The notes: a model not told the origin generated them from the letters alone. Numbered from the stretch's first letter, positions 17,300 through 54,380 are shown. The stretch is DNA of 64,000 nucleotides from Blasia pusilla (GCA_050084515.1 CM114271.1:15872001-15936000); one strand, 5' to 3'. Numbers and translations: made by a program.

Positions 17300-18000
17300 T
17301 ACCACAGTCAACCGCGGTCGATCATTGTGCGTCACTACCTATGATCGACGGCTCGAATCCAATATAGAATCCACCAACAAATCGGAGGGGCGCTCCACTC
17401 TCGCATAAGCCCTCCGCAACACCTCATGTGGTACCAAGTTGGTCCACCAAAGACGCGGGCGGTGTACTCTAGAACCTACACTCGTCGCATCTAACAACAC
17501 TGCCGAGCCGATCCATGCGCGCACCTCTTGTGCACTCATCACCATGCGGGACCTCAAATCGCCCAAAATTGGCACATCTCCAAAATGTATGCTAGAGAAC
17601 AAGAATGATGCTCTTATAAATGTCACAAGATCCGCATCATCTCCCAAAATAACCTGGACCAAGTGTCAGCTAACTCGCTACCTCGTCCAACACTCGATTG
17701 GCCCTGACACGGCCAACCAGAAATGACCAAATCTATGGTCCCTACCCGCTCCAAGTTGTGCGCCCCCAACAATGAAATGTCCCTTGGTAGGGAACTCTCG
17801 TAACCCTGAATGGCGGACGCACACAACAAGTCGGGAAAACGGAGGCGTAACAGTGCCACATGGTGAAGTGAAGTGCACCTTGCAACATCATTAATCTCCA
17901 CACATATGTACTAGTGCACGCACACTCCACCGTGAAAAACAACAGCTAACCCAGTGCTGATCCCTCCAAAGAGATCCAACAGCCAAATACCCTCCTCTAG
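17300..18000 (-). pseudogene. C5 cytosine DNA methyltransferase domain (DNMT3-like), motifs I-VIII, retroelement-encoded
   Basis: Manual translation: LLDLFGGISTG (I), VEIND (II), RDI (III), IDLVISGWPCQGQSSVG (IV, catalytic PC within GWPCQ at 17704-17718), YILE[frameshift]VP (VI, presumed ENV), HRPRLWWTNL (VIII). Interrupted by TAG/TGA stops. Confidence 0.9.
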
Positions 18001-21000
18001 GATGCATCACACAATCAGGGTGGTGTCCAAAAGGATCATAGCAACACTCTTGCCTACTTGGGGTTCCTCTGACCTATCACACTCTAGTGCAAACGTCTCG
18101 CTCCACGCGGTATGCACATGCTCAATGGCTAACTGTCGAAGCTCTTTAGTCGAGCCCCAAGGCGACACCTCTCCTCCACAGACTAATGCGGATATCATGA
18201 CGCTCCTCTTCATAGAGGTGTCAAGAACCGGACATATCCCTCAATCAAATCACTAGACCAAGTGATGGCAGTGCTAAATTTTGCTAAGGTCTCCATCTCT
18301 CCTTGCCGACGCTCGATCACTGCACCTGTGAATCGAACGGGTAAATAGCTAAGGCGCCCATCACCTAACTGCCATCCTGGTCTGTAGGACCCTGACTCCT
18401 CCCAATAATCGAGGGAAAACCCCATCGGGAATAACATTGCTCCACCAACCAAGACGTCGTAGGACTCTGCATCAATCACTATCGCATTGGCTCACACCAC
18501 GGACTCATATGTAGGGTGTCCCGGGAGAATCCTCACCACAACCTCATATTGGATGATATACTGTGTGGTACTCGCTCCACCCAAGGATGTCTATATCTCG
18601 AATGGACAACGCTCCACATCGGCTCTCGTCAAGCCCAATCCTCTCGAATGACACTTTCCCCAACATCAGGGGTTGCGCTCTTGAATCCAACAAGACGCGC
18701 TGCGGACTAAAAGATCTACCTCATGGACTCATCAAGTGAGAGACCTCTCCTCGGTTATCCAGCACAACAACACCAAGAGAAGCCATGGCACGCTCTTTCA
18801 TGGGTCTAGCGGGCATCTCCGCCATCCTAGCAGCCGCAGCCTGCCATGAATCTGACGTGAACGGTCATAGCATCACCTCCTCTGCAATCACCTCTGAACG
18901 TAATGAAGGAACTCCAACTCCACGCTCAAATAGCGTAGCGGCCAACCAAAAAACCTCGGCGGATGTACCTCCCAATGTCATAACATGGGCAACAGAAAAT
19001 AATGGAGCGTGGTATACAACGGTGGCCCCCCCCCAACAATGTGCTCGACACATGCCCCTCGTGAGCATTAACAATAAGAGTCGTTGCACTCGCTTCTCCC
19101 ATCGCCCTCAATGCCTACACACCAACTCTTTAGGAACTGTGATCAGGACCCATTGATGGGGTCATCATCGCCTCAATCAACGTGAAATACTTAGGAAGCC
19201 TTCTCTATTTCCTAGCTTGCCCTCACTGTGGATCCAACTCTACGACTGCTCCACGCATCACAACTGTGGCGGCCTCCATCTGAGCAACCCCGCACATCCA
19301 ACCAGGATCCTCCGTATCTCTGGCTGCTCCATATGATGTCGATGCCAAGGATCCGGCATCAGATAACCTCAATGCCATAGCGGCAATCTGATCCTGTAGC
19401 GGCTGTACCTGAGCAGCCATCCCAGCCTCACGTCTAGCATCTCCCTCAACGCGTCTAGGTGGTGGGACTCTACCTCCTCCACGGGCTGCTCCACCACCCT
19501 GTCGGGCAACTCCAACTCCTTGTCCCCCAATAGGACCACCAAGTGCACGATCTCTAGGCCCACCTCGACCGGCTACTCGCTCTAGTGCCCTCTCTAGCCC
19601 TCGATCCGGACGTAACTAAGGGTGTAAACTGAAACACCTGGCGCGTGTGCGACCATACCTCTGACAATAGTCACACTGATAACCTCCTGGTGTAGCACCA
19701 TCTCCTCCTCCATGCTGAGGCACACGTCGATGACCTTCACGAGTGCAATCACGCTGATGATGGGCTCCACCACATGACCAACAAGTAATTGTAGGTGGCT
19801 ACTACTGAGTTGTATATGAAGGCGCAGGTCTCTATGGCACGGCCTCTCGGTATCCTCCCTGAGCTCGTGGTGCCACATTCAACCTATCTTGGAGTCCACG
19901 TTGCTGCACTGGTGGTGTAGACAATCTTGACTACTCTCGCCCAGAACCCATGGTGGCTACGCTCTCCTCCGCCATGTTGCGCTCAATGTTCTCGGCTGTC
20001 CTAAAAACATATCTGAATGTAGGGGAGGTGTTCATAAGAAGCACTCCCTCCTGCACCCGTGTCCGCAAGGTCTAGTCCAATATCACGTACCATGACTGGA
20101 TAGCCAGAGCCTCTATCACCCCTTGAGTGATGTTGATCAACCGGCGCAAGCGAGTGTAAGCCTCACGCAAACTCTCACTCGGGCGCCTCTGGAAGTCGCA
20201 ACTTCTCTATCCGTAACCCCGTGGTAGCTTGCCCTCAACTCAGCAAAGAACTCAACCACGGGGTTAAACCCGGGACAAACCCGACTAGACGGTGCAACAG
20301 CTCCAGTGCGAGAGACCCCACCTAAAATATCACTAGTGGAAGAGGAAGTAGCCTCTCGTGACTCCTCCTCCTCATCTGGGAACGCCTCTGTCCATGACAC
20401 ATAATGTGGGTCGTAGTAGAGTCGTCATGCCTCAATCTCCAGGGCATATCTTTGGGAGAACTCATGGTAATCGTCCATGGGCGCCCCCTCTAAATGTTGG
20501 AACATACCGTTCCATGCTGTAAACAAGTTGAACTCTCTAGAGTTCCTAGCCCGATGTGAGTCACACTAGGTCCTAAACTCTGCAATGAAGTCGTGTAGCT
20601 CTATTGTGCCTACATCACCCAAACACCACGAAACCCAATATCCCAAATAACTTCCCAATATCTGGAAATCCCTGACATGTAGAGGGTAAGAGACCAGAAT
20701 GGATAACCTCACAATAATATCGATGACGCTCCTTGGCAACTACAAATCTTGACTCCAATTTGGTCGTGAAGATAACTCCTCCAATTAGCAAGTCGTACTC
20801 CTCTTGTACTGGCGCTGCTCAAACCTCCTCGATGTGCGGTGCAGGTTGAGTGGTCCACTGCGGCACTTACGCCATGGAATGGCTACAAATGACATGGCAG
20901 TCGAGAATGGGGTGCAGCACTCGGCAGCATATCCTCCTCAATCAACAATTCACACGCTCTGCACCTTAATGAAGGAGCGGCTCCGCGATCGAGACGGTGC

Positions 21001-21184
21001 GATGCGACCACAAGCGGCACCGTGTAGCAATCATCGGCATGTTGCAGCTACAGGCATCACGGCATGGTACTCGATCATCGTCAAGCCGCTACCAATCACA
21101 ACATAGCAACAAGAAATGAAAACTCAAACACGATAACCGAGGTCACCTGCCATCACTGGTTGATGACGAAACTGCGATGACGGT
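17300..21184 (-). mobile_element. DNMT-Gypsy retroelement copy 1, body (upstream ORF, gag, protease, DNMT); 3'-truncated
   Basis: Collinear with 30440-34440: gag SWTEAFPDEEEESREA..., CCHC knuckle, protease region, DNMT motifs; ends abruptly in hAT subterminal sequence at ~17300. Confidence 0.9.
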
Positions 21185-22818
21185 AAGGTGAAGGATAAGG
21201 TGGATGGCATATTGGAAAATTTGCGTTTGGGGGCCACGATCATAACGGATTCTTGGGCCAATGTGAGGAACGAGTCTTTAGTGAACATAATGGTCTCCTT
21301 TCCACAAGGTGAGGTCATGATTGAGTCGCTAGACACCAAAGGAAAATCCTAAACGGTGGAATGGTTGGCAAGTCACATAGAGAGGACTATCATGTGCATT
21401 GGTCCACAGAATGTGTTGCAAATTGTGACAGACAATGCTAGCAATGAGCGAGCAGCAAGGAAACTTATCGAAGAAAAGTTCCCTCATATTCTTTGGGGTG
21501 GATGTGTATCATATTCTCTTGATCTAGTCTGCGAAGAGTGAGATAAATGGCCTTGGGTGGACATGATTTTTGCACAAGCTCGTGAGATGGTAGTATTTGT
21601 GAAGACTAGAACTTAGGTGATGGCAAAATCCATGGAAACCAATCCAATGAAGAGACGATTTTTGCTTCTTGTAAATACACGCTTTGCCACAAATTTTATC
21701 ATGTTGGGATACGTCTTAGAATTGAGGGAGGCATTCCACATCATGGTTGCCACCAATGCTTTTAGGGAGTATTTCAATGGCAGGGATGCGAAGCAAAGGG
21801 AGAAGGCACAAGAGATTGAGACTACTATGGCCAATCACGATTTTTGGATGGAGGTGAGGAGTTGTTTGTTGCGGCTCAACCAACTATTATTCTGTTGAGA
21901 GAGTGTGATGGTCATAAAGCAACGGGGTGTATTTATTGCCTTATTTTTTAGATAATGGAAGAGACTCTTTCTTTTCCTGTAACTCCATGGCCCGATGTGG
22001 ATGGAAGGCATTGCGATTATTTTTTCATAATATCTAGAGCTATAGAGATGGTCGATGTTATTTCTACGCGGTGGGCACTTATCCACAAGAAGTTACATGC
22101 AATAGGCTACATTCTTGCCCCTTACAATCTTCTTAATAATGTTTAAGACGTCATTTCAAATGCTGAGTGCATGAGAGATTTCAAACAATAACTGAAAATT
22201 TTTGCAACGGGGGTACATGGCCTCAATGTCACCGAGGCTAATTCTTATGTGGCCACTTGCTTGCGAGAGTTGGGCAACATTGTGAACCATCAAGAAATAT
22301 TTGTGGATAAATTTGGTAAGGAAGGTGTTGATTCACTTGGCCCCTCTGATTGATGGAGCATACACGATCAAGGTGCACCAATATTGCGATTTGTGGCTAA
22401 GACCATATTAGCATAAGTGGTTTTATCTTTTTCAGCGGAGAGAAATTGGAGTAGTTATGGTTTCATCCACAACAAGCACAAGAATAAATTGACCAATGAG
22501 CGTGCCAGGGATTTAGTTTACATCTACAAAAACTCAAGGTTTGGAGACAAGGGTGTTTCTCGGAAATCAAGACAAGCGCTCTTGTACGAGAAATACTTTT
22601 TAGACAGGGATGGACAAGAACAAGCTAGAAGGGTAGTAGAAGATGGTAGCGAATCTAGCCTGCATGCAAGAAACCATTATGGTAATCATGAAGATAACCT
22701 TGACTTGCAAGAAGAGGACCTAGAGGAGGTGGATGTGATATGTGGAATTCATGGCATCGAAGGCAGAGAGGATACTCATATCGGCAACACTGAAAATTTT
22801 GATTCCGAGGGGCTTTGA
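21185..22818 (+). pseudogene. hAT transposase, catalytic and dimerisation region (inverted relative to its N-terminus)
   Basis: GATIITDSWAN, NVLQIVTDNASN, WGGCVSYSLDL, TRFATNF, LHAIGYILAP, SAERNWSSYGFIHNKHKNKL...DLVYIY; several stops and frameshifts. Confidence 0.9.
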
Positions 22819-23409
22819 AGAGATGAAGATGATCTTCAAATAGAACATTGGATTCGAGAGCACGAGGAAGAGCAACAACCAAGGACTTCAAGCTAAGCTA
22901 ATCTGCCCAAAACTTCTCCTAACATAACCTACAACCCTCATATTGTTGCACTAGTAGGAGTTGAGAATTATTCCATCGAGTCTAGTGAACCTATGCGGGA
23001 TACTCCTCCACAATCTTTGAGCGTTGAAAATGGTGGACTTAGTTGATGAGCCAATGATAATGATGTTGTCATACCTATGGTTCCAAACTCTCAACCCATC
23101 AATCATGGCATGGATAGTTCATACATTTCCTCCGATGATGAATCAACTGCAATAGGAACTGGTCGCCGATCCACCCGACTTCGAACTATTGAGCCGCCAA
23201 ATTACCGCTTATATTTTAATCCACCGGATCCAACTAGAGACCTAGACTAGAAGAGTAATTATTAAATTAAGTGAGATGGATTAATAGATAGTAGTAGCAA
23301 ACTTGTTTTGTGTTGACTATTCTAAGAATGTCATTTTATGACATTCCTTTTTATAACCTTCTCGCTAATAAGACAATTATTTTTACATTGAAGGTAAAAT
23401 TCGTAAGTG

Positions 23410-24972
23410 TGATTTTATAGCTCGTGATCACAACTCCATTTTGCTAAAAACTTTGCAAAAGTGCTGCAAACGCAACTTGGGAAAGTTGGACATGATGAAA
23501 AATGAAAAAACCTTCTTTTCATTGAAGGTTTAGTGGTTCGGGGCCAAAACGTACTTACATATTTTTGAGGTTTTGTTCACAACTCAATTTTTGTTGAAAC
23601 TTGGCAAGAGTGGAATATGCACCTTGGAAACCATGTAGAAAAACTTTCAGCTCAAGATGGGAAAAAAGTTAGACAAGGTGAAAAATCAAAAGACTTTTTC
23701 ATTCAAGGTTTAATGGTTCGGGTCCGAAAAGGACTTAGTAATTTTTGAGCTTTTTCTCACAACTCTAATTTTCCTGAAACTTGGCAAGAGTGTAACATGC
23801 ACCTTGGAGACGATGTTGGCCAAATTTCAGCTCAAAATATGAAATTTGGTGAAGATGAAAATTGACAAAAACCTTATTTTGATAGAAGGTTTGATGGTTT
23901 GGGTCCAAAATGGACTTGCCAATCTTTTAGCTTGTGGTCCCAACTGCATTTTACTGGAAACTTGCCTAAAATGCTAGATGCATCTTGGAGACCATGTGGT
24001 CCAAATTTCAGCTCAAGATGGGAAATATGGACAAGGTGAAAAATCATAAGAACTTCTTTTCATTCCAGGTTTAATGCTTCGAGTCCAAAAAGGAGTTAGT
24101 AATTTTTGAGCTTTTGCTCACACTCCATTTTGACTGAAACTTGGCAAGAGTGGAACATGCATCTAGGAGACCATATGGGCCAAATTTCAAGTCAAGATGA
24201 GAAATTTGGACAAGAAGAAAAATGAAACAACCTTATTTTGATAGAAGGCATGATGGTTCAAGTCCAAAAGAACTTGCCAATTTTTGAGCTTTTTGTCCCG
24301 ACTCCATTTTGATTCAAACTTTGCAAGATTCCTAGATGAACTTTGGAGACCATATTTGTCCAAATTTCAGCTCATGAATGGAAAGTTGGACAATATGAAA
24401 ATCATAAGATCTTCATTTCATTAAAGGTTTAATGGTTCGCGTCCAAAAAGGGGTAAGTAATTTTTGAGCTTTGCTCATAACTCCATTTTGATTGAAACTT
24501 GGCAAAAGTGTAACATGCACCTTGGGCACTAGGTGGGCCAAATTTTAGCTTAATATGAGAAATCTGAACTACATGAAAAATGAAAAAACCTTATTTTGAT
24601 AAAAGGTCTAATGGTTCAGGTCCAAAAAGGAATTAGTAATTTTTGAGCTTTTGCTCACAACTCCATTTTGATTGAAACTTGGATAAAGTGTAACATGCAT
24701 CTTGGGCACTAGGTGGGCCAAATTTCAGCTTAACATGAGAAATCTGAACAACATGAAAAATGAAAAAACCTTATTTTGATAGAAGGTCTGATGGTTCGGG
24801 TCCAAAAAGGAGTTAGTAGTTTTTGAGCTTTTGCTCACAACTCCATTTTCTTGAAACTTTCCAAGAGTGGAACACAAACCTTGGGGACCATGTTGGCCAA
24901 ATTTCAGCTTAAGATACGAAAGTTGGTCAAGATGAAAATTGAAAAAACCTTATTCTGATAGAAGGTCTGATG
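23410..24972. repeat. ~180-bp tandem repeat array, ~8.5 copies, inside the hAT
   Basis: Anchor AAGGT(T/C)T(A/G)ATGGTTCGGGTCCAAAA recurs at ~23526, 23705, 23886, 24067, 24245, 24424, 24603, 24783, 24962; cut off by the retroelement starting at 24973. Confidence 0.95.
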
Positions 24973-26131
24973 TGTCACGACTTTTAGGATAGATCGGTGA
25001 GATCTAGTAGAGCGCCTTCATGAGTAGTGGAGGACAGGCTTAGTAGGTTGAGGATGATGTGTTGAGACCCCATAAAACCTGAGAGAGCAGGTTTCCCCTT
25101 CGTTTCGGCTCATTTGGAGCTATATTGAGGAACTTACTATTTAAGGTAAGAACCATTTTGAGTATATGACCAACTTTCTATTTTTGGTAAGATGCCTTTG
25201 ACCTTCTACATCAGGTCAAGAGCCAAGGAGGTGACTTGGGAGCATAGGTTACCAGGGAGAGAGCTTGGGAGAGGGGAGGGGTATACCTCATGGAGAGAGA
25301 GCTTGAGAGGTTATTCTCTCTTTGTTGAACCTCTTGGCATGAGATGGAGGAGCTTTGGTCTTGCTTGCCTTGTGTGTGTAACCCAAGTCTCTCATTAGGA
25401 GAGTGGGTTTGGTTTGACATTGAGAGAGACATGTGAGAGTGCACACATGTGAGAACTATGGTGTTGTGAGAGAGATTGGATCTTATTTTACAAAGAGAGA
25501 ATGAGTAAGTGAGAGAGCTTCATGGGGAAGCTCGCTGGTTGCTCGATGTTTGGTGCAGGTTGGGAGACCGTGTTGCCTGCTTCATGGCTCATGGGAGTGC
25601 TCACCAGAGCAAGATCCGTGCGAGTTTGCAGTTTTGCTTTGCTGAGTTTTTGTACGGGAGAGTGGCACGCGGAAGCGCTGCCAAATTTTCGATATAATTG
25701 AGTATGGGGGCGGGTTGCTCCATGCTGGTGCTCTCGAGAGCACCATGTAGCTTGCTGATTTTTGTTCTCATAGGTTTTACATTTTCGTTGGTAGAAATCA
25801 GCGCGGAAGCGCTGCCAAATTTTGTGTAGGAGAAAGAGACATTGGGCTTTATGACAGTCCCCGCCAATTTTTACTGGAATGTTCAATTCCAAATATTTTT
25901 TATCATTATTGTAGATTGTGAAGCTATGCACACTGTGCAACAAACGGTGCACAACTTGGAGTTGCAAGAAAAAAGTTATGGTTAATCTTGCAAAAATGCC
26001 ATTGCTAGGCGATTTTTAGGGTTAAATTATTCAAACCCTAAACCAGCCGGCGGCGAACGTCGCCTTTGATGGTCAACCCTCATCATCATGGTCAACCATC
26101 ATCGTCAATGGTCCGCCATCACCATCAACTG
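24973..26131 (+). mobile_element. DNMT-Gypsy copy 1, 5' terminal repeat A and leader (continues at 35772-35964)
   Basis: Begins TGTCACGAC; collinear with 61481-62650 and with the reverse complement of 34650-35771; interrupted by copy 2. Confidence 0.88.
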
Positions 26132-29100
26132 TGTCGTGCGCATACACATTGCTACACAACATACATGGCTATCACTGAAGAGGCGCATAAACACGCACGA
26201 TCCTATGCTAACTCATGGCATCCAAACAACGAGACAAGAACTACCAAAATATCTCTAATAAAACAAGATCCAATCTCTCTCACAACACCATAGTTCTCAC
26301 ATGTGTGCACTCTCACATGCCTCTCTCAATGTCAAACCAAACCCTATCTCCTAATGAGAGGCTTGGGTTACACACTAGAGGCAAGTAAGACCATAGCTCC
26401 GCTGCCTCATGCCAAGAAGTTCAACAAAGAGAGAATGAGCTCTCAAGCTCTCTCTGTCCTCCACTACTCACAAAGGCGCTCTACTAGATCTCACCGATCT
26501 ATCATAAAAGATGTGACAGTTTTTGTGCGCATACACATCGCTACACAACATACATCGCTTGTTACCAAACACACACACAAACACACACGATCCCATGCTT
26601 ACTCATGGCATCCAAACAACGAGACAAGAAGTACCAAAATATTTCCAATGGCCCCCCTAGCTAGTGGTTAGGTCCCTCTAACTCTAGATAGCCATCTATC
26701 CCTACCTATCATGACATACATCTCTCGGACGCTAAGAGCAAGAAGGCCGGGTGCTTATGTGGCCCCATCGTTAGTCGCATTCTTATCATCCATGTCATAG
26801 ACACAAGTCGGAATCTAGAACTACCTACTCTATGTACATCTGGGGCACATCCACCGTCCTTCAAGAATTATAGTGAGAGGTGGCGTCAAACATGCCATAT
26901 GCCATCCTCTCGAACACCCATCACAGATTAGCATAGTGGTTGCACAACGGGCCGAACCACACAACATACACCGCAAGCCTGCAGGAACTTTTGCTAAGCT
27001 TTGTTCAATTGTATCGTCAATGTTCGAAAGATGACATGGCGCACAGTTACGCATGTGGTCCTTCCAAACCATACCATCGCGTCCCTCCAATAAGAGAACT
27101 CCAGATGGCAAAACCTCACGCACTCTGAAGATGGTGCGCCCTACTGTCACATCCAACATCGTGGGTGCCGTCTGCTGCAAGTAGACATAGTCTCCTTGAT
27201 GAAAACTCCCGATAGTATGTCGATAATCACCTCCCCAAATAGTCGCATACCTCAACGTATCCTCATGTTGCGCAATCGCCAAATTCTCAAACGCCATGGG
27301 CATCACTCTCGGAAATAACTCAGCCCTCTTAGAACATGCTTGCATCCATACATAAGGGTCATCAAGGTTCAACACCTCACCAGTATCTTGACGAATGGCC
27401 GTTGGTAAATCAAGTTCTCGGCCATAAAGCAACAAGTACGGTGAGAAAGACGCTAAGGATGGTTGCCTGCTGAATCAGTATCCCATCGCCAACCATGGCA
27501 ACTGAAGGTCCCAATCTCCTAGGTGACCTCTCTGCAAGCCATACTTGCGTAGTCCTCTCTTCATCGTCCGTACAACCCCCCCGCTAGTCCATCCACCTCA
27601 GGATGATCTCGCGAAGTAGTGCGGTGGTTGATCAGTGCCTGATCACACAAGGCCTAAAACTCCCCGCGAAACTCTATACCCTGGTTTGTCAACATCTTAG
27701 CTGTTGCATTGTAATGACTCAACACTCGATCTAGGAAGGCATACGCAACTCCCTCACTCGCTTTGTCAAGCAATGCAACCAACTCTATCCACTTCGAGAA
27801 GTGCTTGAACATCACCAACACATAACGACTATGGCGCTCCGTCAAAGGCAAAGGTCCTGCAAAATCCAAACTCCATCTATAACCTAAACCCATGATCGGA
27901 AGTGGATGCAAGTGTGGAGTTGGAGCATTGAATGATGCTCGAACTTGATCACATACCATGCATCTGGTAAGAAACTGCTGAACGTGAGTCTGCATGCCTC
28001 GCCACCAATACTGAATTTGGAGCAAGCTGTACGTCCGCTTCACTCCAAAATGATCCAACTCCTCAAGGGCATGACGCACCAAACATGCTCTCTACGAAGG
28101 ATGAGGCACTACATGCACTCTACCATCCTCCCACACTCGCAACATATGTGTGCCCTCCCATAGAAACCGTGTGGCTCGTTGTAGGATCCAATCCCGCTCT
28201 CTAGAACCCACTGTGCTCGTGACGCTGCCAATACGCAGGTACTCCATGACCACTCCATCGTTGTGAATGTCTTGGCCACCTATCGTCTCCTCACTCGCCT
28301 TTGGATCTAAGAACTCCATCACACCTCGCCATCGAAGTCTCAAGAATCTGGCTCTCTAGCCAACAAGCCCAAATAGGCTGACGCATGCCATCCTGGAACC
28401 AACTCCTCATCACTCTCACCATGCCAATGAACTTAAGTTGCATCTCGGTGACTCGGGCATGGGTTATAGCTCAAACCATATGTATCTTGGTTTAGCGTCC
28501 CAGGTCTATGCACCATCTGGAAGTCATACTCCTGCAACAAAAGAGCCCACCTCGCAAGCTTCCCTCTAAGCTTGTCGGACTCCATCAACCACTTAAGTGG
28601 CTGATGATCAGTAATGATGGTAAAGGGATTGTCGAATAGATAACATCTGAAATATACGACAGCCCATATTGCAACCAAGCACTCACCCTGATACGAGCTA
28701 TACTTTTCCTCTGCAGCGTTGTTCAAGCGACTAGCATAAGCCACCACGAACTCTCTACCAACATGCTCCAATCGGTATGCAACTCAAAAGGATGACCCCT
28801 GATCGGTCTCCTCAATATGGGCGCAGACATCAATCTGTCCTTGAGCATCTGAAATGCTCTCTCTTGCTCATCCCCCCAGTGCCACTCCTGATCTACCTTG
28901 GTCATCAAGGTTAGCGGCTTCGCAATCCAATTGAAACCCTTGACGTACCGTCGATAGACGTTCGCCAATCCCATGAATGCACGAACTCGACTCACATCTG
29001 TAGGGCGTGGAATGCATGAAATAACCTCTACCTTTGTCTGTTGCACACCAAGGTGTATCGTATGATCGAAGTACTCAATCTGGTCATAGAAGAACTTGCA

Positions 29101-32100
29101 CTTGTTTGGATGTAGCTTCAGCCCATGTAACTACAATAGTCGAAACACCTCCTCTAGATGTCGCTCATGCTCCTCAACCGTGGCGCTAAATACTACGATG
29201 TCATCAATATAACACCTGGCAAAATCTAGACCTATCAAGATCCTATCCATGACCCTCTGAAACTCATCCGGGGCGTTCTTTAACCTGAATGGTAAGAACC
29301 GCCACTGGTACAAACAATCCTTCACGTGAGGATCAATGCCCAAAAATGTTGTCTTCTGCTTGTCCTCCTATCTAATAGGCAGCTGATGGTATTTGGCTTG
29401 CAAATCCAATGAACTGAAGACCTTTGCATGCCCAATCGCATCAAAGATCTCCTCAAGGGTGGGCATGGCATACCTTTTTGGCCTTTGTCTGCCGATTGAT
29501 CGGTTGGTATTCTCCACACATTTGCCTATCCGTCTAGTTGCCATCCACATCCTTCTTGGCGGGAATGATAGTGGCAGATGCATACTCTCCATGCAACATC
29601 TCCACTGGCTTGCTCCAACCAAGTTATGGCTCCTACTCTGAATCAGAGCCCTCTCCATGTCGCAGTATATGTAGGGTCGTCTGAAGATTGGCGTGTCACT
29701 CGACAACTCAATGCGGATCGCTTGACCCTTCATTGTACCCAAATCATGCATACTAAATGCAAAACAACTCCTATAACACCCAAGGAAATGGTGTATCCGA
29801 CGTCGCTCTCCTCCTGTCAACTTAGGGCCCATATCTGGCTCCCAAGTCTCCATCGTGACTATGATAGGACTCACCATAGCAACCGCAGACATTCGCGTCT
29901 GTGGTTGCTATGGTGCAATCCCGTCTCGGAAAATAGAACTCCCATCTCCACCTGTAGTACTCGGAACCATGCTCAATGTTGTGGCTATCAACTCTTGGCA
30001 TACCTGAAAAACATCCCAAGAAGTCCAAGGGTGTCACTCCCGATCATCCCTGGTGTGTCGATCTCCTCGGGTCTCGCCCCCAGCCATTTCCTCAACCGTC
30101 TTGGTAGGCATGGGGCTCACCAACGCAACAACTATGATCTGTCATCCTCAAACAACGCTGCTCAGCTAATCCTAAGCTGAAAATCCATGTCAAGTAGTTC
30201 AAGTCCATTGCCTGACCCAAGACATGGCATCATGATGCATCCGATAGTGACAGTACTGCCGTCACTCCTGTGGAGAATCCCATTTCTCGCTCTCGCTCAT
30301 CGACGTTGGGCTCTATCAACCGTTGTAGCTGGTCATCCTAAACCAATCCAGGTCTCGCCTCCTTGAATGCATGGGAAGCGGGAAAACTCACCAATGTGGG
30401 AAAGGCGGCTCGTGGCATGCCAATCCTGTTGACAATAGTCAACGGCGGTCGATCATCGTGCCTCACTGCCTAAGATCCACAGCCCGAATCCAATATAGAA
30501 TCCACCAACAAATCAGAGGGACGCTCCACTCTCGCATAAGCCCTTTGCAATACCTTATGTGGTACCAAGTTGGTCACCAAAGATACGGGCGATGTGGTCG
30601 TGAACCCACACTCGCTGCATCTAACAACATTGTCGTGCCGATCCATGCCTGCACCTGATGTGCACTTGTCACCACGAGGGACCTTGAATAGCCCAAAATT
30701 ACTGCTGCACGCGCACTCTAGCGTGCAAAACAACAGCTAACCAGTGTTGATCTCTCCAAAGAGATCTAACACCCGAATACCCTTCTCTGGGATGCACCAC
30801 ACAATCAGGGTGGTGTCTAAAGGGATCATAGCAGCACTCTTGCCTACTTGGGGTTCTTCTGACCCGTCACACTCTAGTGCAAATGTCTCACTCCACGTGG
30901 TCTGCACATGCTCAGTGGCTAAGCGTCGAAGCTCCTCAGACCATCCCCAAAGCGGCACCTCTCCTCCACGAACTGATGCGGCTACCATGACACTCCTCTC
31001 CATAGAAATGTCAAGAACAAGAGGATCCTCTCCATGGATATGTCCCTCAATCAAATCACTAGGCCAAGTGATGGCACTCCTAAATGTTGCTAAGGTCGCC
31101 ATCTCTTCTTGCTGTCGCTCGATCACTGCACCTGTGAATCGCTAAGGCGTCCATCACGTGACTGCCATCCTGGTCTGTAGGACGCTGACTCCTCCCAGTA
31201 ATCGAAGGAAAACCCCATCGGGTATAATAGTGCTCCACCAACCAAGACGTCGTAGGACTCTACATCAGTCATTATCGCCTTGGCTCACACCACGGACTCA
31301 TCTATGGGATGTCTCGAGCGAATCCTCACCACGACCTCCTGTTGGGTGATATATTGTGTGGTACTTGCTCCACCCAAGGATGTCTACATCCGGAATGGAC
31401 AACGCTCCAAATCAGCTCTTGTCAAGCCCAATCCTCTAAATGACGCTTTCCCCAACATCAAGGGTTGCGCTCTTGAATCCAACAAGACGCGCTGCGGACT
31501 AAAAGCTCTACCTCTAGGACTCACCAATTGGAAGACCTCTTCCTGGTTATCCACCAACACAATACTAGGAGAAACCATAGCACGCTCTATCGCGGGTCTA
31601 GCGGGCATCTCCGCTTTCCTAGCAGCCGCAGCCTACCGTGAATCTGACATGGACGGCCCGAGCATCCGCTCCAAGGGCAGGTCCGTCACCTCTGAACGTG
31701 ATGCAGGAACTCCAACTCCACGTCACATAGTGTAGCGGCTTGCCGAAAAACCTGGGCGGGCGTACCTCTCAACTTCATAACATCAGAAGCAGAAAATAAA
31801 GCAGCGCGGTACACAACGGTGGCCGCCCCCAACAACATGCTCAACACATGCCCCTCGTGAGCATCAGCAATAGGATTCGTTGCACTCGCTTCTCCCATCA
31901 CCTTCCATGCTTGCACACCAACAACATCACCAACTCTCTAGGAACTTTGATCAGGACCCATCGATGGGGTCCTCATCGCCTCAGACAACATGAAAGAGTG
32001 AGGAAGCCTAATCTGTTTCCTAGCTTGCCCTCGCTATGGATCCCACTCTACGGCTGCTCCACGCGTCACAACTACGGCGGCCTCCATTTGGGCAATCCCG

Positions 32101-35100
32101 CACATCCAACCGGGATCCTCCATGTCTCTGGCTGCTCCATATGATGTCAATGCCACACATCCGGCATCGAATAACCTCAATGCCATAGCGGCAATATGCT
32201 CCTGTAGATGATGTATGTGAGCAACCATCCCAGCCTCATGCCTGGGGTCTCCCTCGACGCGTCTAAGTGGTGGGACTCTACCTCCTCCACGGGTAGCTCC
32301 ATCACCCTGTCGGACAACTCCAGCTCCTCGTCCCCCAACGTGACCACTTGGTGCACGACCTCTAGCCCCACCCGGACCGGCTACTCGCTTTGGTGCCCTC
32401 TCTGGCCCTCGGTCCAGACGTAACTCAAGATGTAAACTGAAACACCTAGCGCGTGTATGACAATACCTCTGACAATAGTCACATTGATAACCTCTTGGTG
32501 CAGCACCATCTCCTCCTCCATGCTGAGGCATACGTCCATGACCCTGACGAGTGCAATTGTGTTGATGATGGGCTCCACCACATGACCAACAAGTAATAGA
32601 AGGCGGATTCTGCTGAGCCGCATATGAAGGCGCACGTCTCTATGGCACGGCCTCCCGGTATCCTCCCTGAGCTCGTGGTGCCACAGTCAACCTATCTCAG
32701 AGTCCATGTTGCTGCACAGGTGATGCAGAAAATCGTGACTGCTCTTGCCCAAAACCCATGGTGGCTACGCTCTCCTCCGCCATGTTGTGCTCAATATTCT
32801 TGGCAGTCCTAAAAACATCTCTCAAAGTAGGGGAGGTGTTCATAAGAAGCACTCCCTCCCGCACCCGTGTCTGCAGGGTCCGGTCCAACATTGCGTACCA
32901 TGACTGGATAGCCTAAGCCTCCGTCACCCCCTGAGTGACGTTGATCAACCGGTGTGAGCAAGTGTAAGCCTCACACAAACTCTCATCCGGGTGCCTCTGG
33001 AATTTGTGGATGCTCCGTAACTTCTCCGTCCGTACCCCTTGGTAGCTCGCCCTCAACTCAGCAAAGAACTCAACCACGGGGTTGAACTTGGGACAAACCC
33101 GACTAGATGGTGCAACTGCTCTAGTGCGAGTGACTCCTTCTAAAACATCACTAGTGCAAGAGGAAGTAGCCTCTCTTGACTCCTCCTCCTCATCTGGGAA
33201 CGGCTCTGTCCATGACACACAGTGTGGGTCATAGTAGAGTCGCCATGCCTCAATCTCCTGGGCATATATGTGGGAGAACTCATGTTAATCGTCCATGGGC
33301 GTCCCCTCTAAATGCTGGAACATACCGTTCCATGTTGTAAACGGGTTGAACTCTCTAGAGTTCCTAGCCCGCTGTGAGTCACACCAACTCCTAAACTCCG
33401 CAATAAAGTCGTGTAGCTCTACGCGGTCCTCTATCCCGGTCGTCCATCTCGTATGCCCAACTGGTAGGACCACTCAATATGTACGGTAGATCACTAACAC
33501 ACTCCTCTACACACTCACTCTCGTCTGAAGAGGACACAGAAGAAGATCGTGGTGGTCTCTCACATGGACACCCTCGAAACCTCGCACCACTCCGGGTAAA
33601 CCCTCCAGATCTACTCTCACGTCCATTACCTCGCCTCTCAAAATCGAGAAAGGACGCCGTGATGGCCCTGGTGCCCCTCTCACACAATCACTCTCTATCT
33701 AGTGAGTAATCCCTCAATTGCTCAAACTAAATATGCGACACTCAATCTACACTCTCTCATTGAGACGTGTGTTGTGCGGCAACAAGCAGCGTGGTACGGC
33801 ATATCAACCGATCTATGGTCTCAATGACAAACCATCCTCAACCCTGGACATCCCACACAGGTCTATGTCCCCTAAACCCATACATCATCGATAATACTAG
33901 CATCAGCACGAAACCCAATATCCCAAATAACTTCCCAATATGTGGAAATCCCTCACACGTGCAGGATAAGAGACCAGAATGGATAACCTGACAATAATGT
34001 CGATATCGCTCCTTGGCAACTGCAAATCTCGACCCCAACTTGGTTGTGAAGACAACTCCTCCAATCAGCAAGTCGTACTCCTCTTCTACTGACGCGGCTC
34101 AAACCTCCTCGATATGCGGTGCAGGTCCAACGGTCCGGTGCGGCACGGAACGGCTACAAACGGCACGGCACTCAGCGGCATACCCGCCTCAATCAGCAAT
34201 TCACATGCTCTGCACCTTAGTGAAGGAGCGGCTCTGCAATTGAGATGGTGCGGTGCGGCCATATGCGGCACGGCGCGGCAATCAGAGGTGCGCTGCAGTT
34301 ACGGGCATCACGGCACGGTACTTGATCATCGTCGAGCGGCTACCAATCCCAACATAGCAACATGAAATGAAAACTCAAACACCATAACCCAAGGTCACCT
34401 TCCATCACAGGTAGATGACAAAACTACGATGACGGTGGCGGCCAAACTAAAGTACATGGTGGTAGCCCAAGTCAGAAAATCAACGGTGGTCGTGGAAGAC
34501 CCTCCACTCCGTAATGGCTGCAATAGCAACCAAAGGGTGGACAACGGCCGAATGCGACTCTGAGCAGCACCAGACGATGGCAACGGCCGACAGTGGACCG
34601 GTGATGGTCACAATTGATCGTTGATGGTGTCGACGAACCGTTGATGGTGACGGTTCACCATTGACGGTGACGATTGACCGTTGACCGTTGATGGCGCGGC
34701 GGATGGTTTAGGGTTTGAACAAGTTAACCCTAAAAATTGCCTATGAATGAAAATTTTGCAAGATTCACCATAATTTTTTTCCCAACTCCAAATTGCGCAC
34801 CGTTTGTTGCACAATCTGCAGAGCTTCTCGATCTACGAGAGTGTCAAAAAATATTTGGAATCGGACATTCTTGTAAGACTTGAATGGGATTATCGTAAAG
34901 CCAAATGTCTCTTTCTCCTACACATAATTCGGTAGCGCTTCCGCCCTGATTTCTCCCAACAAAAATGTAAAACATATAAGAACACAAATCAGCAGCTACA
35001 TAGTGCTCCTGAGAGCACCGGCATGGGGCAACCTGCCCCCATACTCAATCCCTATCAGAAATTGGGCAACGCTTCCGCACGCCACTCTTCCACACGAAAA

Positions 35101-35771
35101 ATCGGCAAAGGAAACATCACAAGTAAGCGGCTCTTGCTCCGGTGAGCACTCCCATGAACCGCTGAAGGGGGAATACGATCCCCAACCTGCAAAACTAGCA
35201 ACTGACGAGCGAGCTTCCTCATGAAGCTGTCCCACTCAATCATTCTCTCTTTGTAAAATAAGATCCAATCTCTCTCACAACACCATAGTTCTCACATGAG
35301 TGCACTCTCACATGTCTCTCTCAATTTCAAACCAATCCCACTCTCCTAATGAGAGGCTTGGGTTACACACACAAGGCAAGCAAGACCATAGCTCCGCCCC
35401 CTTATGCCAAGAGGTTCAACAAAGAGAGAATGAGCTCTCAAGCTCTCTCTCCTTGAGGTATACCCCTTCCCTCTGCCAAGTTCTCTCCATGGTAACCTAT
35501 GCTTCCAAGTCACCTCCTTGGCTCTTGACCTGATGTAGGAGGTCAAGGGCCACTTACCAAAAATAGAAAGGTGATCATTGACTTAAAATGGTACTTACTT
35601 AAAATAGCAAGTTCCTCAATATGGCTCCAAATGAGCCGAAACGAAGGGGAAACGTGCTCTCTCAGGTTTCCCAGGGCCTCAGCACGTCATCCTCAAACTA
35701 TTGAGCCTGTCTTCCACTACTCACGAACGCACTCTACTAGATCTTACCAATCTACTCTAAAAGACATGACA
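26132..35771 (-). mobile_element. DNMT-Gypsy retroelement copy 2, near full length (~9.6 kb)
   Basis: Minus-strand ends TGTCATG ... GCGCACGACA; possible 4-bp TSD ACTG/ATTG (one mismatch); complete gag-pol domain series inside. Confidence 0.9.
26830..33700 (-). pseudogene. gag-pol pseudogene: gag-CCHC, aspartic protease, DNMT, RT, RNase H, integrase, PHD finger
   Basis: CDYCQRYCHTRARC knuckle (~32440-32490); VLLDSRAQP protease (~31480); VLDLFGEINTG and DNMT motifs IX-X (30180-30780); RT FSSLDLQAKYHQ and YIDDIVVF; RNase H FELHTD...VVAYASR...ITDHQPL; integrase HFG...CMVC, SLDFAGPLP; C4HC3 PHD. RT-RH-INT order is Ty3/Gypsy. Confidence 0.93.
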
Positions 35772-35964
35772 ATTGTCACTATCAACGGTCAACTATCATC
35801 GTGAACGGTCCACCGTCCACCATGGGCCGCTTTCGTCGCCTAGCGTTGGTCAGAGCCGCGTTCGGCCGTTGTCCACCCTTTGGTTGCCATTGACGCCATT
35901 ACGGAGTGGAGGTTCTTCCACGACCACTGTTGATTCTCTGACTTCCGCCACCACGTACTTTGGT
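35772..35964 (+). mobile_element. DNMT-Gypsy copy 1, remainder of 5' leader
   Basis: Matches 62655-62790; resumes the sequence interrupted at 26131. Confidence 0.85.
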
Positions 35965-36635
35965 CTCAATTAGGGTAATGCACAACGATTGTAACTAGGA
36001 CTTGAGTAACCCTTCACCTTTGTTGTTTCCAACACTGCTTGTTTGAAAGCATCTTGTTGTACTATGTTGAATGGTATTCCACATTGGTAGAAACACTTTG
36101 CCCATATGTCACTCGTAACTTCTATTCCTTGGATGTTGAAAGAATCTCTCAGATTGGCTTGCTTCTTCCCATAACTACTACTCCCTCGAAGGGGCCCAAC
36201 AACTCCTCTCCATTCCTCAAGACTGTCACTCGATGGTATGTCTGCAACCCCATCAACATTTTGTACAACATAAACACTATTTCATATTTTTTGCGAACCT
36301 ATTTGTAATGGAGTCGTCTCTTCCACTTCACTCGAAGGTCTCGCTTGCCTTCTTTGTCCATTTCCCACTAATACCCTCTTCCAAAGATCCCGTTGCACAT
36401 TGGGAGGGACCTTCACACATAATTTGGCATGATGGATATCTTGATTCCCATCCTTTGTCTTTCGTCTCTCTCGTGTAAAATGCTCCACCATCCGCGTGCT
36501 ATGATAGGTTTTCATAGAATTAGAACAATACTTGCACTGCCATCTGCTTAATTTTCCACCTTCCATCATTGCTTCTTCCCAATGTTCCTTCACGACTTGT
36601 TGGAGTTCTTTGGCTTTGGTCATGACTACAGGCAC
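35965..36635 (-). pseudogene. hAT transposase N-terminus with BED zinc finger
   Basis: EHWE...RWQCKYC...HSTRMVEHF...HAKLC, then ...KGYSSPSYNR.(L)CITLIE at the breakpoint. Confidence 0.85.
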
Positions 36636-53800: not shown

Positions 53801-54380
53801 GTACTACGTGATACACCGTTGGGCAAGAGCAACTCCATGTCCTACCTTCAACCACACAAGCAACCTCTCGTCGGAGAGTGGATTTTATTATGTCTCGAGG
53901 TGGATTCCGGACACTAGGTGATGTGGTGGTTGCTGATCCAACACGTTCTGACTTGGTGTGTCAAGCCGCACATATCAAAGGTTCGGCGGCCGAAGCCGCA
54001 GCAAGAACCAAGGAGTTAAGTCATGCTATGAGACATGCGAATGATGGATTTATTCCTTTTGTAGTGGAAGTATTCGGTCATTTACATGTGTCTTTTGTTA
54101 CTAATTATTTTCGGAAATGCATCTCAGTGGCCTTACAACGTGCACAAGCCTTGGCATTGATACATGGTGCGGAGGTGGTGGAGGGTCGCTCGCCGCGTCA
54201 TCCATTCACGTCTGACCAACCACTCGTGTTCTTGTCGAATTTGTATCAGGCTATCAATTGTATAGCTCGTTGAGTTGGTGTTTGCGTTGGCTTGTTGCTA
54301 TTTTCTTTTTGCATTTTTTTACTCCTCTTTTGAGATGTTATTACCTTTCTTTGTCCTCTTTTGAAGTTTATTTTATAATA
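50900..54380 (+). mobile_element. CRE-clade-like non-LTR retrotransposon (zinc finger-RT-restriction-like endonuclease), pseudogenised
   Basis: CIPCGKDFASNGIKRH; PLAIGEVLYRL, HQFGV, DVASTFNSV, GTPQGDPMG, IADNT (degenerate YADD); AGAWL...LRLRLG; ATHD; RVDFIM...DVVVADP...K...FIPFVVEVFG. No AP endonuclease seen. Confidence 0.85.

Follow-up and report, generated by a model that had tools for sequence, protein, structure and literature searches.

Retrotransposons that carry a C5 cytosine methyltransferase of their own have been described from the dinoflagellate Symbiodinium and from the streptophyte Klebsormidium, as an earlier note on the present DNA had correctly pointed out (de Mendoza 2018, PMC5890265). 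According to the main text of that paper, the Symbiodinium carriers are a tyrosine-recombinase element (SymbioDIRS-Dnmt3) and a LINE (SymbioLINE-Dnmt), in both of which the methyltransferase is under purifying selection; the DIRS-borne enzyme, a DNMT3-like one, methylates CG in yeast, and methylation of the cDNA was proposed. The closest described system is KnitGypsy-Dnmt3, reported there among streptophytes only from Klebsormidium nitens, which combines Gypsy-type domains, an intron-less, non-rearranged Dnmt3-like domain within the polyprotein, repeats that are 'the same as that of a DIRS retrotransposon' and purifying selection. Its domain produced no methylation in yeast, a result called inconclusive by the authors in the same text. 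Why a retrotransposon should carry an enzyme used by hosts for transposon silencing has been an open question since 2018, the known carriers being difficult experimental organisms and the yeast assay of the Gypsy-borne enzyme having given no result.

The window analysed here, that is, the whole stretch of 64,000 nucleotides from Blasia pusilla (GCA_050084515.1 CM114271.1:15872001-15936000), contains decayed copies of a bryophyte-type Ty3/gypsy-type retrotransposon family encoding both a DNA methyltransferase (DNMT) and a PHD finger. Compared with KnitGypsy-Dnmt3 through its published description, the family matches the Gypsy-DNMT3 kind known from Klebsormidium: it shares the features listed above, with a non-rearranged DNMT3-like domain inside a Gypsy-type polyprotein, as well as a streptophyte host. 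It differs in its bryophyte-type land-plant host and its high copy number, and three of its features are unmentioned in the main text of PMC5890265, namely the integrase PHD finger, a stop after the DNMT and a 4-bp duplication with TG..CA ends. With the Symbiodinium elements as described it has in common a retrotransposon-borne C5 methyltransferase under purifying selection, but it possesses a DDE integrase and is neither a DIRS element nor a LINE.

The occurrence of the same kind of element in land plants, including Marchantia polymorpha, makes the purpose of the element DNMT testable. M. polymorpha is a genetic model in the laboratory, and the family offers several experimental handles: a conserved stop that would set the DNMT:RT (reverse transcriptase) ratio, the integrase PHD finger, defined ends and natural open reading frames which need no reconstruction. 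Moreover, some bryophyte gene models annotated as 'DNA methyltransferase' or 'PHD-type' are transposon genes, which calls for caution in annotation.

Organisation of the copies in the window

The domain map of the window was drawn by tblastn against Marchantia and Calypogeia proteins. Copy 2 (26132-35771, minus strand) is a full-length but decayed element, delimited by this map and by its termini, with the order gag, protease, C5 cytosine methyltransferase, RT, RNase H, integrase and PHD finger. The gag remnant, with CCHC-like knuckles, lies on the minus strand, like all the features of this copy, at 31722-33440 (matching residues 15-563 of protein P0002); Pfam gave no gag match in the copy 2 pieces, and zf-CCHC is present in the relatives P0019 and P0179. 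It is followed by an aspartic protease remnant (31138-31608), recognised by tblastn, by translation and by invariant D-G-A columns in the alignment of relatives, whose active site reads DSR as against DSG in intact relatives, and by a linker (31102-30740). The DNMT remnant spans 30146-30790 (tblastn match 30699-30146; motif map and translation). RT and RNase H occupy 28403-29907, as placed by tblastn to P0006 (RT 29844-28759, RNase H 28759-28403) and by Pfam (RT_RNaseH, E 1.3e-24, and RT_RNaseH_2). The zinc-binding domain of the integrase follows at 27654-28091, together with the first part of the DDE core (Integrase_H2C2, E 4.3e-12), the rve match (E 1.4e-4, 22.5 bits) falling under its cut-off of 32.6. 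Five of the nine copy 2 pieces scanned, including the DNMT remnant, had no Pfam match.

The order protease, RT, RNase H and integrase (DDE with H2C2), seen by Pfam in the window and in the intact relative L026 and by tblastn, is that of Ty3/gypsy elements and agrees with the earlier note, which had also placed the DNMT between protease and RT. In the window pieces and L026, Pfam detected Integrase_H2C2 and rve but did not detect a tyrosine recombinase; the family is not of the DIRS order, whose elements have such a recombinase in place of a DDE integrase.

Several further copies are present. Copy 1 (17261-21184, minus strand) is the 5' part of an element, with gag at 19145-20619, protease at 18231-19026 and DNMT at 17261-18198 by tblastn; it is 85% identical to copy 2 in DNA and is truncated after motif VIII. 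Copy 3 (61470-64000, plus strand) comprises a 5' region and the start of gag (63864-63998 by tblastn), matches 35782-33316 at 76.7% and runs off the window. An RNase H-integrase fragment of another copy lies at 60148-61324 on the minus strand (85% match to 27645-28764; 71% by tblastn to P0006). Copy 4 (24973-26129, plus strand) is the 5' region of an older copy, recognised by an inverted 84% match to 34620-35771 and by its junction sequences, and continues at 35777-35964, which matches 34629-34446. As had been stated from the first, every copy in the window is dead: there are stops and frame shifts, truncations and, in one case, an internal deletion.

The sequences flanking copy 2 (24973-26129 and 35777-35964) run on without interruption in other copies, which places copy 2 within an older copy of the same family. 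DIRS-like inverted terminal repeats, for which the 1.15-kb inverted match between 24973-26129 and 34620-35771 might be taken, were rejected, the flanks being one split older copy. Nested same-family insertions within 64 kb are consistent with targeting of repeat-rich chromatin, but selection against genic insertions would also leave them behind.

Coding plan and in-frame stop

In intact relatives the first frame encodes Gag (CCHC), the aspartic protease, a linker of about 170 residues and the DNMT3-like C5 methyltransferase, while RT, RNase H, integrase (H2C2 and DDE) and the C-terminal PHD finger follow a single in-frame stop. When L026 is read through its TAG, Pfam finds protease, DNA_methylase (E 5.4e-13), RVT_1, RNase H, Integrase_H2C2, rve and PHD, in that order. 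In copy 2 the corresponding TAG, between the gag-protease-DNMT and RT-RNase H-integrase-PHD frames, is located at 29908-29910 (minus strand; context TAG CAA CCA). The earlier note had suggested testing for one continuous frame from gag to PHD: the domain order has held, whereas the DNMT is the last domain of the gag-protease frame and not part of the RT-integrase frame, a point new with respect to the first reading.

Of the 28 places showing the RT N-terminal motif, 26 (25 metagenome loci and the window) contain a single in-frame stop with QP(M/Q) after it, TAG in 18 cases and TAA in 8. The in-frame contexts in L026 and L037 are TAG CAG TTA and TAG CAA TCA. Readthrough contexts are known to follow the rule CAR-YYA, and the conserved stop together with its context suggests that it is read through. 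Against readthrough there are the eight TAA stops and the context of moss-type copies, CAA CCC, which departs from this rule.

The methyltransferase domain

Both the Pfam match and the motifs identify the domain. A piece of copy 1 (17500-18099) matches DNA_methylase (PF00145) with E 3e-7 and 30.6 bits (cut-off 22), the other three copy 1 pieces having no match in the same scan. Translation and motif mapping recover the motifs listed earlier for each copy: copy 1 retains I, IV (PCQ), VIII and, interrupted by a frame shift at about 17577, VI, and copy 2 has motif I followed by VIII, IX and X, with stops and a frame break near 30575. Copy 2 is devoid of about 338 bp (about 127 residues, motif II to VI), the equivalent of 17571-17908 in copy 1.

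The resemblance to DNMT3 which had been read from the motifs is borne out, closeness being judged among solved structures. The relative P0005 matches DNMT3A/B/C at E 8e-11 to 1.2e-7, DRM at 4e-7 and the bacterial M.HaeIII at 4e-4, with DNMT1 absent from its matches; a profile of ten proteins matches 29 DNMT3 sequences at E 1e-16 to 7e-15, the next best being DRM at 3.6e-7, and DNMT2 is matched by the element DNMT only at E 9e-3. In the AlphaFold model the block-mean pLDDT of the DNMT part is mostly 70-90, with dips to 45-69, and the best 50 Foldseek matches of the predicted fold are all DNMT3A/B/C (target TM about 0.8 for catalytic-domain chains). By sequence profile and predicted fold, the domain is therefore classed as DNMT3-like and non-rearranged. 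The animal DNMT3A/3B/3C catalytic domains, its best matches in sequence and fold, have the same unpermuted order of motifs I-X, but identity is 21-24% in the listed fold matches and the element DNMT sits in a retroelement polyprotein. PWWP and ADD, the N-terminal domains of DNMT3, were not found by Pfam in P0001, P0002, P0005, P0179 or L026, and no host DNMT3, DRM, CMT or MET1 sequence is among the 150 listed matches of the sensitive protein search.

In the ten proteins, which are 30-63% identical to the first sequence, PCQ, ENV, HRxRxxWTNL, ERERAMGF and LGxAxD are invariant; motifs I, IV, VI, VIII, IX and X follow one another in the usual order, and the catalytic PC and ENV are present. Between L026 and L037, dN/dS is 0.11 for the DNMT, 0.20 for protease and linker and 0.056 for ORF2. 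The DNMT is thus under purifying selection, as judged from this ratio and from the invariant catalytic motifs. The window and L001 diverge at non-synonymous sites by 0.24-0.33 in the DNMT and 0.31 in RT, dN/dS being uncomputable in three of four segments because synonymous sites are saturated. The value between copies 1 and 2 (0.52, 47 codons only) mostly reflects decay after insertion.

Element ends

Copy 2 ends at 26132 and 35771 in TG..CA and is flanked by a 4-bp duplication, CAAT/CAGT in the sense of the element, with one transition mismatch; the flanks are CATA/CATA in L020 and AAGG/AAGG in L012, so that TG..CA ends are accompanied by target duplication. The ends are split direct repeats and not plain LTRs, another point new with respect to the first reading, with the layout A1 ... 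B1-A2-B2 in the window copy, L012 and L020. On the minus strand, the 5' repeat A1 (35254-35771) contains a 256-bp stretch absent from A2, and the 3' repeat block (26132-26649) is made up of B1 (26525-26649), A2 (26259-26521) and B2 (26132-26259). A1 and A2 are 92% identical over 35254-35450 and 26259-26455, and match again at 82% over 35707-35774 and 26454-26521; B1 and B2 are 85.6% identical. Only A is present at both ends in these three copies, none of which has two identical LTRs in direct orientation. The DIRS-like repeats of the Gypsy-DNMT3 kind were thus found in three of the eight elements examined, the other five (L026, L037, L030, L036 and L004) being without terminal repeats within the contig stretches examined.

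Directly 5' of B1 lies a polypurine-tract-like, purine-rich block ending in a G run (26650-26689, minus strand), which is nearly identical in the window, L012 and L020 despite an overall DNA identity of about 69%; no tRNA-type primer site adjoining A1 was evident by eye. According to PMC4157794, PAT-like and Ngaro elements likewise have the A1-B1-A2-B2 layout with internal repeats downstream of the coding region, but they employ a tyrosine recombinase, in contrast to the DDE integrase, TG..CA ends and 4-bp target duplications found here. The explanation favoured below does not account for the way in which an integrase-bearing element rebuilds split direct repeats, which counts against it.

The PHD finger

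That the integrase ends in a PHD finger, as first proposed, has been confirmed by Pfam (E 6.2e-10, 39.4 bits, cut-off 24). An open frame of 214 codons (26830-27474, minus strand) encodes the C-terminal region of the integrase and the finger (about 26836-26970), and then stops; this region is 71-75% identical to Marchantia and Calypogeia proteins. The nearest solved PHD fingers are CHD4 PHD2, KDM5 PHD1, PHF21A, AIRE and UHRF1, all of which read the unmodified H3 tail, and by analogy with these relatives the same histone specificity may be expected here. A histone reader on the integrase C-terminus, presumably directing integration, is also described for chromoviruses (Gao et al. 2008, as cited in PMC6673714); their reader is a chromodomain, whereas here it is a PHD finger, and no Chromo domain was found by Pfam in the nine window pieces or L026.

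Relatives and origin of the family

Occurrence in land plants has been established, relatives with conserved catalytic motifs being named from Marchantia, Calypogeia and Sphagnum. Marchantia and Calypogeia proteins carry the DNMT at the same place, and so do moss-type loci, in which its sequence closely resembles that of a cluster containing Sphagnum proteins. In Marchantia polymorpha there are full-length gag-protease-DNMT gene models, and family members already stand in public protein databases as 'hypothetical proteins'. Cluster look-ups for 30 proteins gave the names Marchantia, Calypogeia, Sphagnum and Scenedesmus; one further record bears the label of a cyanobacterial bin. In the literature searched, which does not extend to subscription journals, such elements were found described neither from bryophytes nor from other land plants; a term search there yielded only PMC5890265 and one 2026 preprint.

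Furthermore, some green-algal and other elements, such as the 'pol' of Scenedesmus sp. PABB004 (P0052), combine writer and reader in one element with the order RT, RNase H, DNMT, integrase and PHD; no published description of them was found in the literature searched. Their DNMT is homologous to that of the present family (35-43% identity over the whole domain) and their integrase-PHD region is 39-44% identical to it, but the DNMT lies between RNase H and integrase instead of between protease and RT. The integrase-PHD tree has these elements as its outgroup and does not place the window element nearer to either Marchantia or Calypogeia.

The bryophyte family could have captured a DNMT3-like gene independently, its likeness to KnitGypsy-Dnmt3 being due to convergence. 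Repeated independent captures are documented in de Mendoza 2018 (PMC5890265), whose main text does not mention a PHD finger, and word-indexed protein searches returned no protein named as Klebsormidium. Nevertheless, we regard this origin as unlikely: on the published description, the two have three unusual traits in common, in that the pol is of Gypsy type, the polyprotein contains a non-rearranged DNMT3-like domain and the repeats are DIRS-like, and the sensitive protein search gave 281 clusters of DNMT relatives at E < 1e-30, with retroelement domains in 10 of the 12 relatives scanned with Pfam. Such hundreds of close, transposon-borne relatives point to an old and widespread lineage.

Proposed mode of action

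As a whole, the explanation which we favour, and hold to be somewhat more probable than not, adds to the anatomy above a Gag-side DNMT that methylates the element's own cDNA and an integration tethered by the PHD finger. Translation would mostly end after the DNMT, an occasional readthrough of the stop adding RT, RNase H, integrase and PHD finger. Because translation would usually stop there, Gag-protease-DNMT would be the abundant product, and the DNMT, being made with Gag, would therefore be present where cDNA is synthesised. There it may methylate the new DNA of the element before or at integration. The PHD finger would in turn tether integration to chromatin whose H3 tails are unmodified, in other words to silent chromatin, so new copies would land in repeat-rich silent DNA already resembling DNA methylated by the host. 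We know of no Gypsy-borne DNMT with demonstrated activity.

A wider joint reading is offered tentatively, and appears rather doubtful in its entirety. It would make the family part of an old green-lineage clade of Gypsy-type DNMT3 elements, spanning chlorophytes to mosses and liverworts, the capture not being private to Klebsormidium, and with writer and reader in two orders (protease-DNMT-stop-RT and RNase H-DNMT-integrase). The leaky stop would make the writer as abundant as the capsid protein, with new cDNA born methylated, and in these elements with a DDE integrase and split direct repeats the internal B|A boundary (CA|TG) would be a stored copy of the joined ends. If true, such storage would constitute a replication scheme undescribed for integrase-bearing elements.

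Copy number, transcription and decay

The family is present in the source organism in high copy number and is transcribed there. Bins of the DNMT unique to copy 1 have a depth of 1028-1419 in the genomic run X14, the least covered bin having about 16, so that read depth over the DNMT is 65-89 times that of the latter; the depth of the DNMT part matches that of gag. Together with its constant position in relatives, this indicates that the DNMT is a stable component of the family. The majority of reads lack at least three of the five in-frame stops of the copy 1 DNMT. Three RNA runs of the source species cover the whole element, with a strand bias that flips with element orientation (e.g. 148-216 versus 9-12 over 26505-27171); the RNA reads are mostly less than 90% like the window copies (5652 of 7703 in run X17). 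This evidence for expression comes from raw-read mapping alone, the sequencing-run index listing no RNA run for the element.

Mutations have accumulated in the window copies, which are old, and C-to-T type changes are in strong excess: in X14 there are 812 places where, by transition, the window has A/T and the reads G/C, and 134 of the opposite kind, an excess of about 6:1. This decay fits heavy methylation of integrated copies, as would be expected if the DNMT acted after integration or in trans, on its own promoter repeat or on neighbouring host DNA, limiting its own expression, lowering the harm to the host and letting the family persist; such an option is listed in the Discussion of de Mendoza 2018 (PMC5890265). 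However, host pathways methylate all plant transposons, which means that C-to-T decay is not specific to this family, and the family is still transcribed; moreover, the Gag-side placement of the DNMT is more in keeping with a role in the particle than with a trans role in the nucleus. Action of this kind is accordingly considered quite unlikely.

It is very unlikely that the domain does not methylate DNA at all and acts on RNA, or as a DNA- or nucleosome-binding module, an idea to which the failure of KnitGypsy-Dnmt3 to methylate DNA in yeast, as given in PMC5890265, lends some weight. Among the ten proteins no catalytic or cofactor motif varies, the PCQ cysteine and ENV included, the dN/dS of the DNMT is low, and its closest relatives in sequence and fold are DNMT3-type DNA enzymes, DNMT2 being a remote match. 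Finally, a host DNMT fragment or assembly chimera brought by chance into two Gypsy copies, which the missing Pfam match of the copy 2 remnant might suggest, is already refuted by the read depth and by the same position and frame of the DNMT in two window copies, in Marchantia and Calypogeia proteins and in the Sphagnum-containing cluster, 313 of the 600 metagenome stretches tested also encoding a relative.

The depth over the DNMT part missing from copy 2 amounts to 40-70% of the summed depth of the shared parts (about 2040-2480), which suggests that some family copies may lack this part or be too diverged to map. Among 21 visible transitions, a small sample, the contexts of decay were CG in eight, CHG in six and CHH in seven.

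Structure of the element copies

The stretch 26132-35771 was found, by six-frame translation and by a tblastn map against liverwort proteins, to be a single Gypsy element on the minus strand (copy 2). On this strand the tblastn map places gag (33440-31722), protease (31608-31138), a linker (31102-30740), a remnant of a C5 methyltransferase (30699-30146, with motif I at ~30741-30790), reverse transcriptase (RT, 29844-28759) and RNase H (28759-28403), while an open frame of 214 codons (27474-26830, minus strand) lies downstream of the integrase and carries a PHD finger at its end. A truncated copy 1 (17261-21184), with 85% DNA identity to copy 2, still keeps the methyltransferase (DNMT) portion that is deleted from copy 2 (338 bp). 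Additional family pieces lie at 60148-61324 and 61470-64000, and an older family copy (24973-26129 and 35777-35964) is the insertion site of copy 2. Every family copy in the window is dead, as the earlier note had stated.

That note had described a Gypsy family carrying its own DNMT3-like cytosine methyltransferase inside pol, together with a PHD finger; the finding is real and this first reading was right. All the listed methyltransferase motifs were found, namely I, IV (with its PCQ), VI (split by a frame shift) and VIII in copy 1, and I, VIII, IX and X in copy 2. The Pfam DNA_methylase domain was recognised in the copy 1 piece 17500-18099 (E 3e-7 and 30.6 bits, the cut-off being 22) but not in the remnant of copy 2, which is one of the five of nine copy 2 pieces with no Pfam match. 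The terminal PHD finger of the integrase was confirmed by Pfam (E 6.2e-10), which also identified Integrase_H2C2 (4.3e-12) and RT_RNaseH (1.3e-24) in copy 2, the rve match (22.5 bits) being under its cut-off.

The protease active site reads DSR in both window copies (31500-31560 and 18620-18690) versus DSG in intact relatives, which could be a common change of the subfamily or parallel decay.

Type and constraint of the methyltransferase

The likeness to DNMT3 has been established by sequence, profile and fold searches against solved structures, with DNMT3A/B/C on top in all of them. When the Calypogeia protein P0005 was compared with all solved structures, DNMT3A/B/C came first (E 8e-11 to 1.2e-7), followed by plant DRM (4e-7 to 2e-4), the bacterial M.HaeIII and M.HhaI (4e-4 to 7e-3) and DNMT2 (9e-3); DNMT1 was not among the matches of P0005 in solved structures. 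The gap was wider with a profile of ten family proteins, which matched DNMT3 at 1e-16 to 7e-15, the next best match being 3.6e-7. Moreover, an AlphaFold model made from 13 sequences gives the DNMT part block-mean pLDDT values of mostly 70-90, with dips to 45-69, and the 50 best Foldseek matches of this part among PDB entries are without exception catalytic domains of DNMT3A/B/C, with 21-24% identity and a target TM-score of ~0.8 for catalytic-domain chains. The motif order is unpermuted, which differs from DRM, and neither a PWWP nor an ADD domain was found in the family proteins examined.

The catalytic residues PCQ and ENV, as well as HRxRxxWTNL, ERERAMGF and LGxAxD, show no variation among ten family proteins that are 30-63% identical to the first sequence. 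The proposed dN/dS check could be made between two metagenome loci, L026 and L037, giving 0.11 for the DNMT, 0.20 for protease plus linker, 0.41 for the tail of ORF1 (the gag-protease-DNMT frame) and 0.056 for ORF2 (the RT-RNase H-integrase-PHD frame), with synonymous sites near saturation (dS ~1.2-1.4 in the three larger regions). Between the window copies and locus L001, synonymous sites are saturated; the non-synonymous differences in this comparison are 0.24-0.33 for the DNMT, equal to those of RT (0.31).

The nearest solved relatives of the PHD finger are CHD4 PHD2 (1.8e-13), KDM5 PHD1, PHF12, DPF2/3, KAT6A, PHF21A, ATXR5, AIRE and UHRF1, most of which recognise the unmodified tail of H3. 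In retrotransposons generally, PHD fingers are known (PMC6673714).

Coding plan and in-frame stop

Relatives were found in 313 of 600 matched stretches of JGI metagenome contigs, and 80 loci were kept. Locus L026 is an intact element, with a frame of 1369 codons (Gag, protease, DNMT), a TAG, and then 1047 codons in the same frame encoding RT, RNase H, integrase and PHD; L037 is built likewise. The check proposed in the earlier note, for one continuous frame from gag to PHD, finds the same frame throughout L026, interrupted by the TAG between DNMT and RT. The N-terminal motif of RT occurs at 28 places in the 80 loci and copy 2, and at 26 of them one in-frame stop is present, with QP(M/Q) after it (TAG in 18, TAA in 8), with DNMT motif X still upstream in the same frame at 8 of these 26. 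The stop context is TAG CAA CCA in copy 2 (29910-29908), TAG CAG TTA in L026 and TAG CAA TCA in L037. Several plant viruses reportedly have UAG followed by CAR-YYA as their leaky-stop context (ascribed to Skuzeski et al. in 1991); CAA CCC, found in the moss-type loci, departs from it. The position and context of the stop suggest that the DNMT would be the C-terminal domain of an abundant Gag-side product, and that RT-integrase-PHD would be made by readthrough.

Element ends

Copy 2 is without plain long terminal repeats. In element sense it consists of A1 (35771-35254), the interior, B1 (26649-26525), A2 (26521-26259) and B2 (26259-26132), all on the minus strand, with identities of 92% between A1 and A2 and 85.6% between B1 and B2. 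The moss-type loci L020 and L012 show the same layout (A ~340 bp, B ~115 bp), so that it was present in three of the eight elements examined; terminal repeats were absent from L030, L036, L004, L026 and L037 within the contig DNA examined. All three elements start with TG and finish with CA, and they are flanked by 4-bp target duplications (CATA/CATA in L020, AAGG/AAGG in L012, CAAT/CAGT in the window). Furthermore, a purine-rich block with a terminal G run, near-identical in the three despite an overall DNA identity of ~69%, lies directly 5' of B1 and not 5' of A2. By eye, no tRNA-like primer site was evident after A1 in L012, L020 or the window (26132-26689).

The split direct repeat A1-B1-A2-B2 is also the pattern of PAT and Ngaro elements (PMC4157794), and it agrees with a figure legend in which the Klebsormidium element is given a DIRS repeat structure with Gypsy domains (Fig. 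4c, PMC5890265). The layout can be described as a repeat unit B+A with the integrated form shifted by one B. The boundary between B and A reads CA|TG, as the junction of both element ends would.

Abundance, transcription and decay in the source organism

In the run index, DNA runs of a single organism share 22-26% of the window's words. One genomic run (X14) and three RNA runs with the same species label were mapped on 16500-36499 at 80% likeness. Genomic depth, with both directions summed, was ~2640-3260 over RT-integrase, ~1310-1590 over gag of copy 2 and 1028-1419 in the DNMT bins held by copy 1 only, against ~16 in the least covered bin; the DNMT segment therefore belongs regularly to a family that is repeated at least ~65- to 200-fold. 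Relative to the summed depth of the parts common to both copies, the copy 1-only DNMT stands at 40-70%, and some family copies may therefore be without the DNMT part or too diverged to map.

The three RNA runs span the whole element, with depths of 97-216 in ORF2, 13-47 in ORF1 and 22-34 in the DNMT bins of copy 1. Their strand bias reverses with element orientation and, if the library follows the usual convention, corresponds to the sense strand. Reads with less than 90% likeness to the window copies are in the majority (147125 of the 200219 genomic reads; 5652 of 7703 in RNA run X17), so the transcripts derive from other copies.

At 812 of the 1442 places where at least half of the genomic reads differ, the window has A/T and the reads G/C by transition, with the reverse at 134. 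Such strong C-to-T type decay of these copies is the signature that methylated cytosine leaves. The context of 21 transitions among the places listed is CG in 8, CHG in 6 and CHH in 7. At least three of the five in-frame stops of the copy 1 DNMT lie at such transition places, among the 40 of 2061 listed, and both DNMT frame breaks show a one-base length difference in over half of the reads; these defects are therefore private to the window copies.

Relatives and previous knowledge

With the copy 1 piece as query, nine of 670 candidate proteins passed, all nine with PF00145: Marchantia polymorpha supplies five of them and Calypogeia fissa two, and the other two are unnamed. Proteins from two Sphagnum species are also present in one unnamed cluster. 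The integrase-PHD frame of the window shares 71-75% identity with proteins of Marchantia and Calypogeia and falls with them inside a supported clade (96/92), the inner order of which is unresolved. A HMMER search with P0005 against 1.84 billion representatives gave 4631 matches at E <=1e-3, 281 of them at E <=1e-30.

Pfam annotation of twelve relatives revealed two architectures. In the first, the DNMT lies between protease and RT (P0019, P0257), also as separate ORF1 (e.g. P0179) and ORF2 proteins (e.g. P0251, P0253). In the second, it lies between RNase H and integrase, with the PHD after the integrase; this order was given by Pfam itself for P0046, P0190 and P0052 (a 'pol' of Scenedesmus sp.), while P0064 and P0121 have no DNMT by Pfam and its position was taken from HMMER matches. 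In P0010 and P0031 the DNMT was the sole Pfam domain found.

The window family belongs to a previously described kind. In de Mendoza et al. 2018, KnitGypsy-Dnmt3 is reported from Klebsormidium only, and its DNMT gave no methylation in yeast, a result the authors call inconclusive (PMC5890265); later papers repeat 'streptophytes (Gypsy-DNMT3)' with land plants not named. No description of the family in bryophytes was found in the open-access literature covered. What is gained is the extension of this kind to land plants, including a genetic model, a PHD reader alongside the DNMT in one element, a conserved stop directly after the DNMT, split repeats together with a DDE integrase, and a family that is abundant and transcribed in its source organism.

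Additional observations

A tandem array at 23506-24977 (units of 179-181 bp, at least 8 copies, 61-93% alike) stops exactly at the start of the older family copy (24973); it may represent a satellite or belong to the insertion site. Other long open frames of the window (1885-3423, 22417-22818 and 52649-54273 on the plus strand; 36282-36635 on the minus strand) look like transposon genes. By eye we take them to be a DNA-transposase-like frame of 512 codons, pieces resembling hAT and BED-finger sequences, and one further element; no host gene was recognised by eye across the 64 kb.

Among the relatives, the elements of the RNase H-DNMT-integrase-PHD order have a long conserved tail (C-terminal 250-300 residues) following the PHD, as in P0190, P0192, P0064, P0196 and P0205. 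A motif like a SAM-binding site was seen by eye in this tail, which may form a second module of methyltransferase type, comparable to the adenine methyltransferases in retrotransposons described in a 2026 preprint. Further, one 90%-identity cluster (P0243) unites integrase-PHD proteins from Marchantia polymorpha and from Calypogeia fissa, and the DNMT domains of the two species are 77% identical. For liverworts so distant this is a high value, and either strong constraint or horizontal transfer could account for it. The Marchantia gene models P0244 and P0247 fuse element pieces (integrase-PHD and DNMT fragments), and others are labelled 'PHD-type domain-containing protein' or 'DNA (cytosine-5...'; these models are transposon genes counted as host genes. 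Finally, P0327, a family protein of 1043 residues (RT-RNase H-integrase-PHD) that clusters with P0252, carries the label of an uncultured cyanobacterial bin and is most likely from a eukaryotic retrotransposon contig in the wrong bin.
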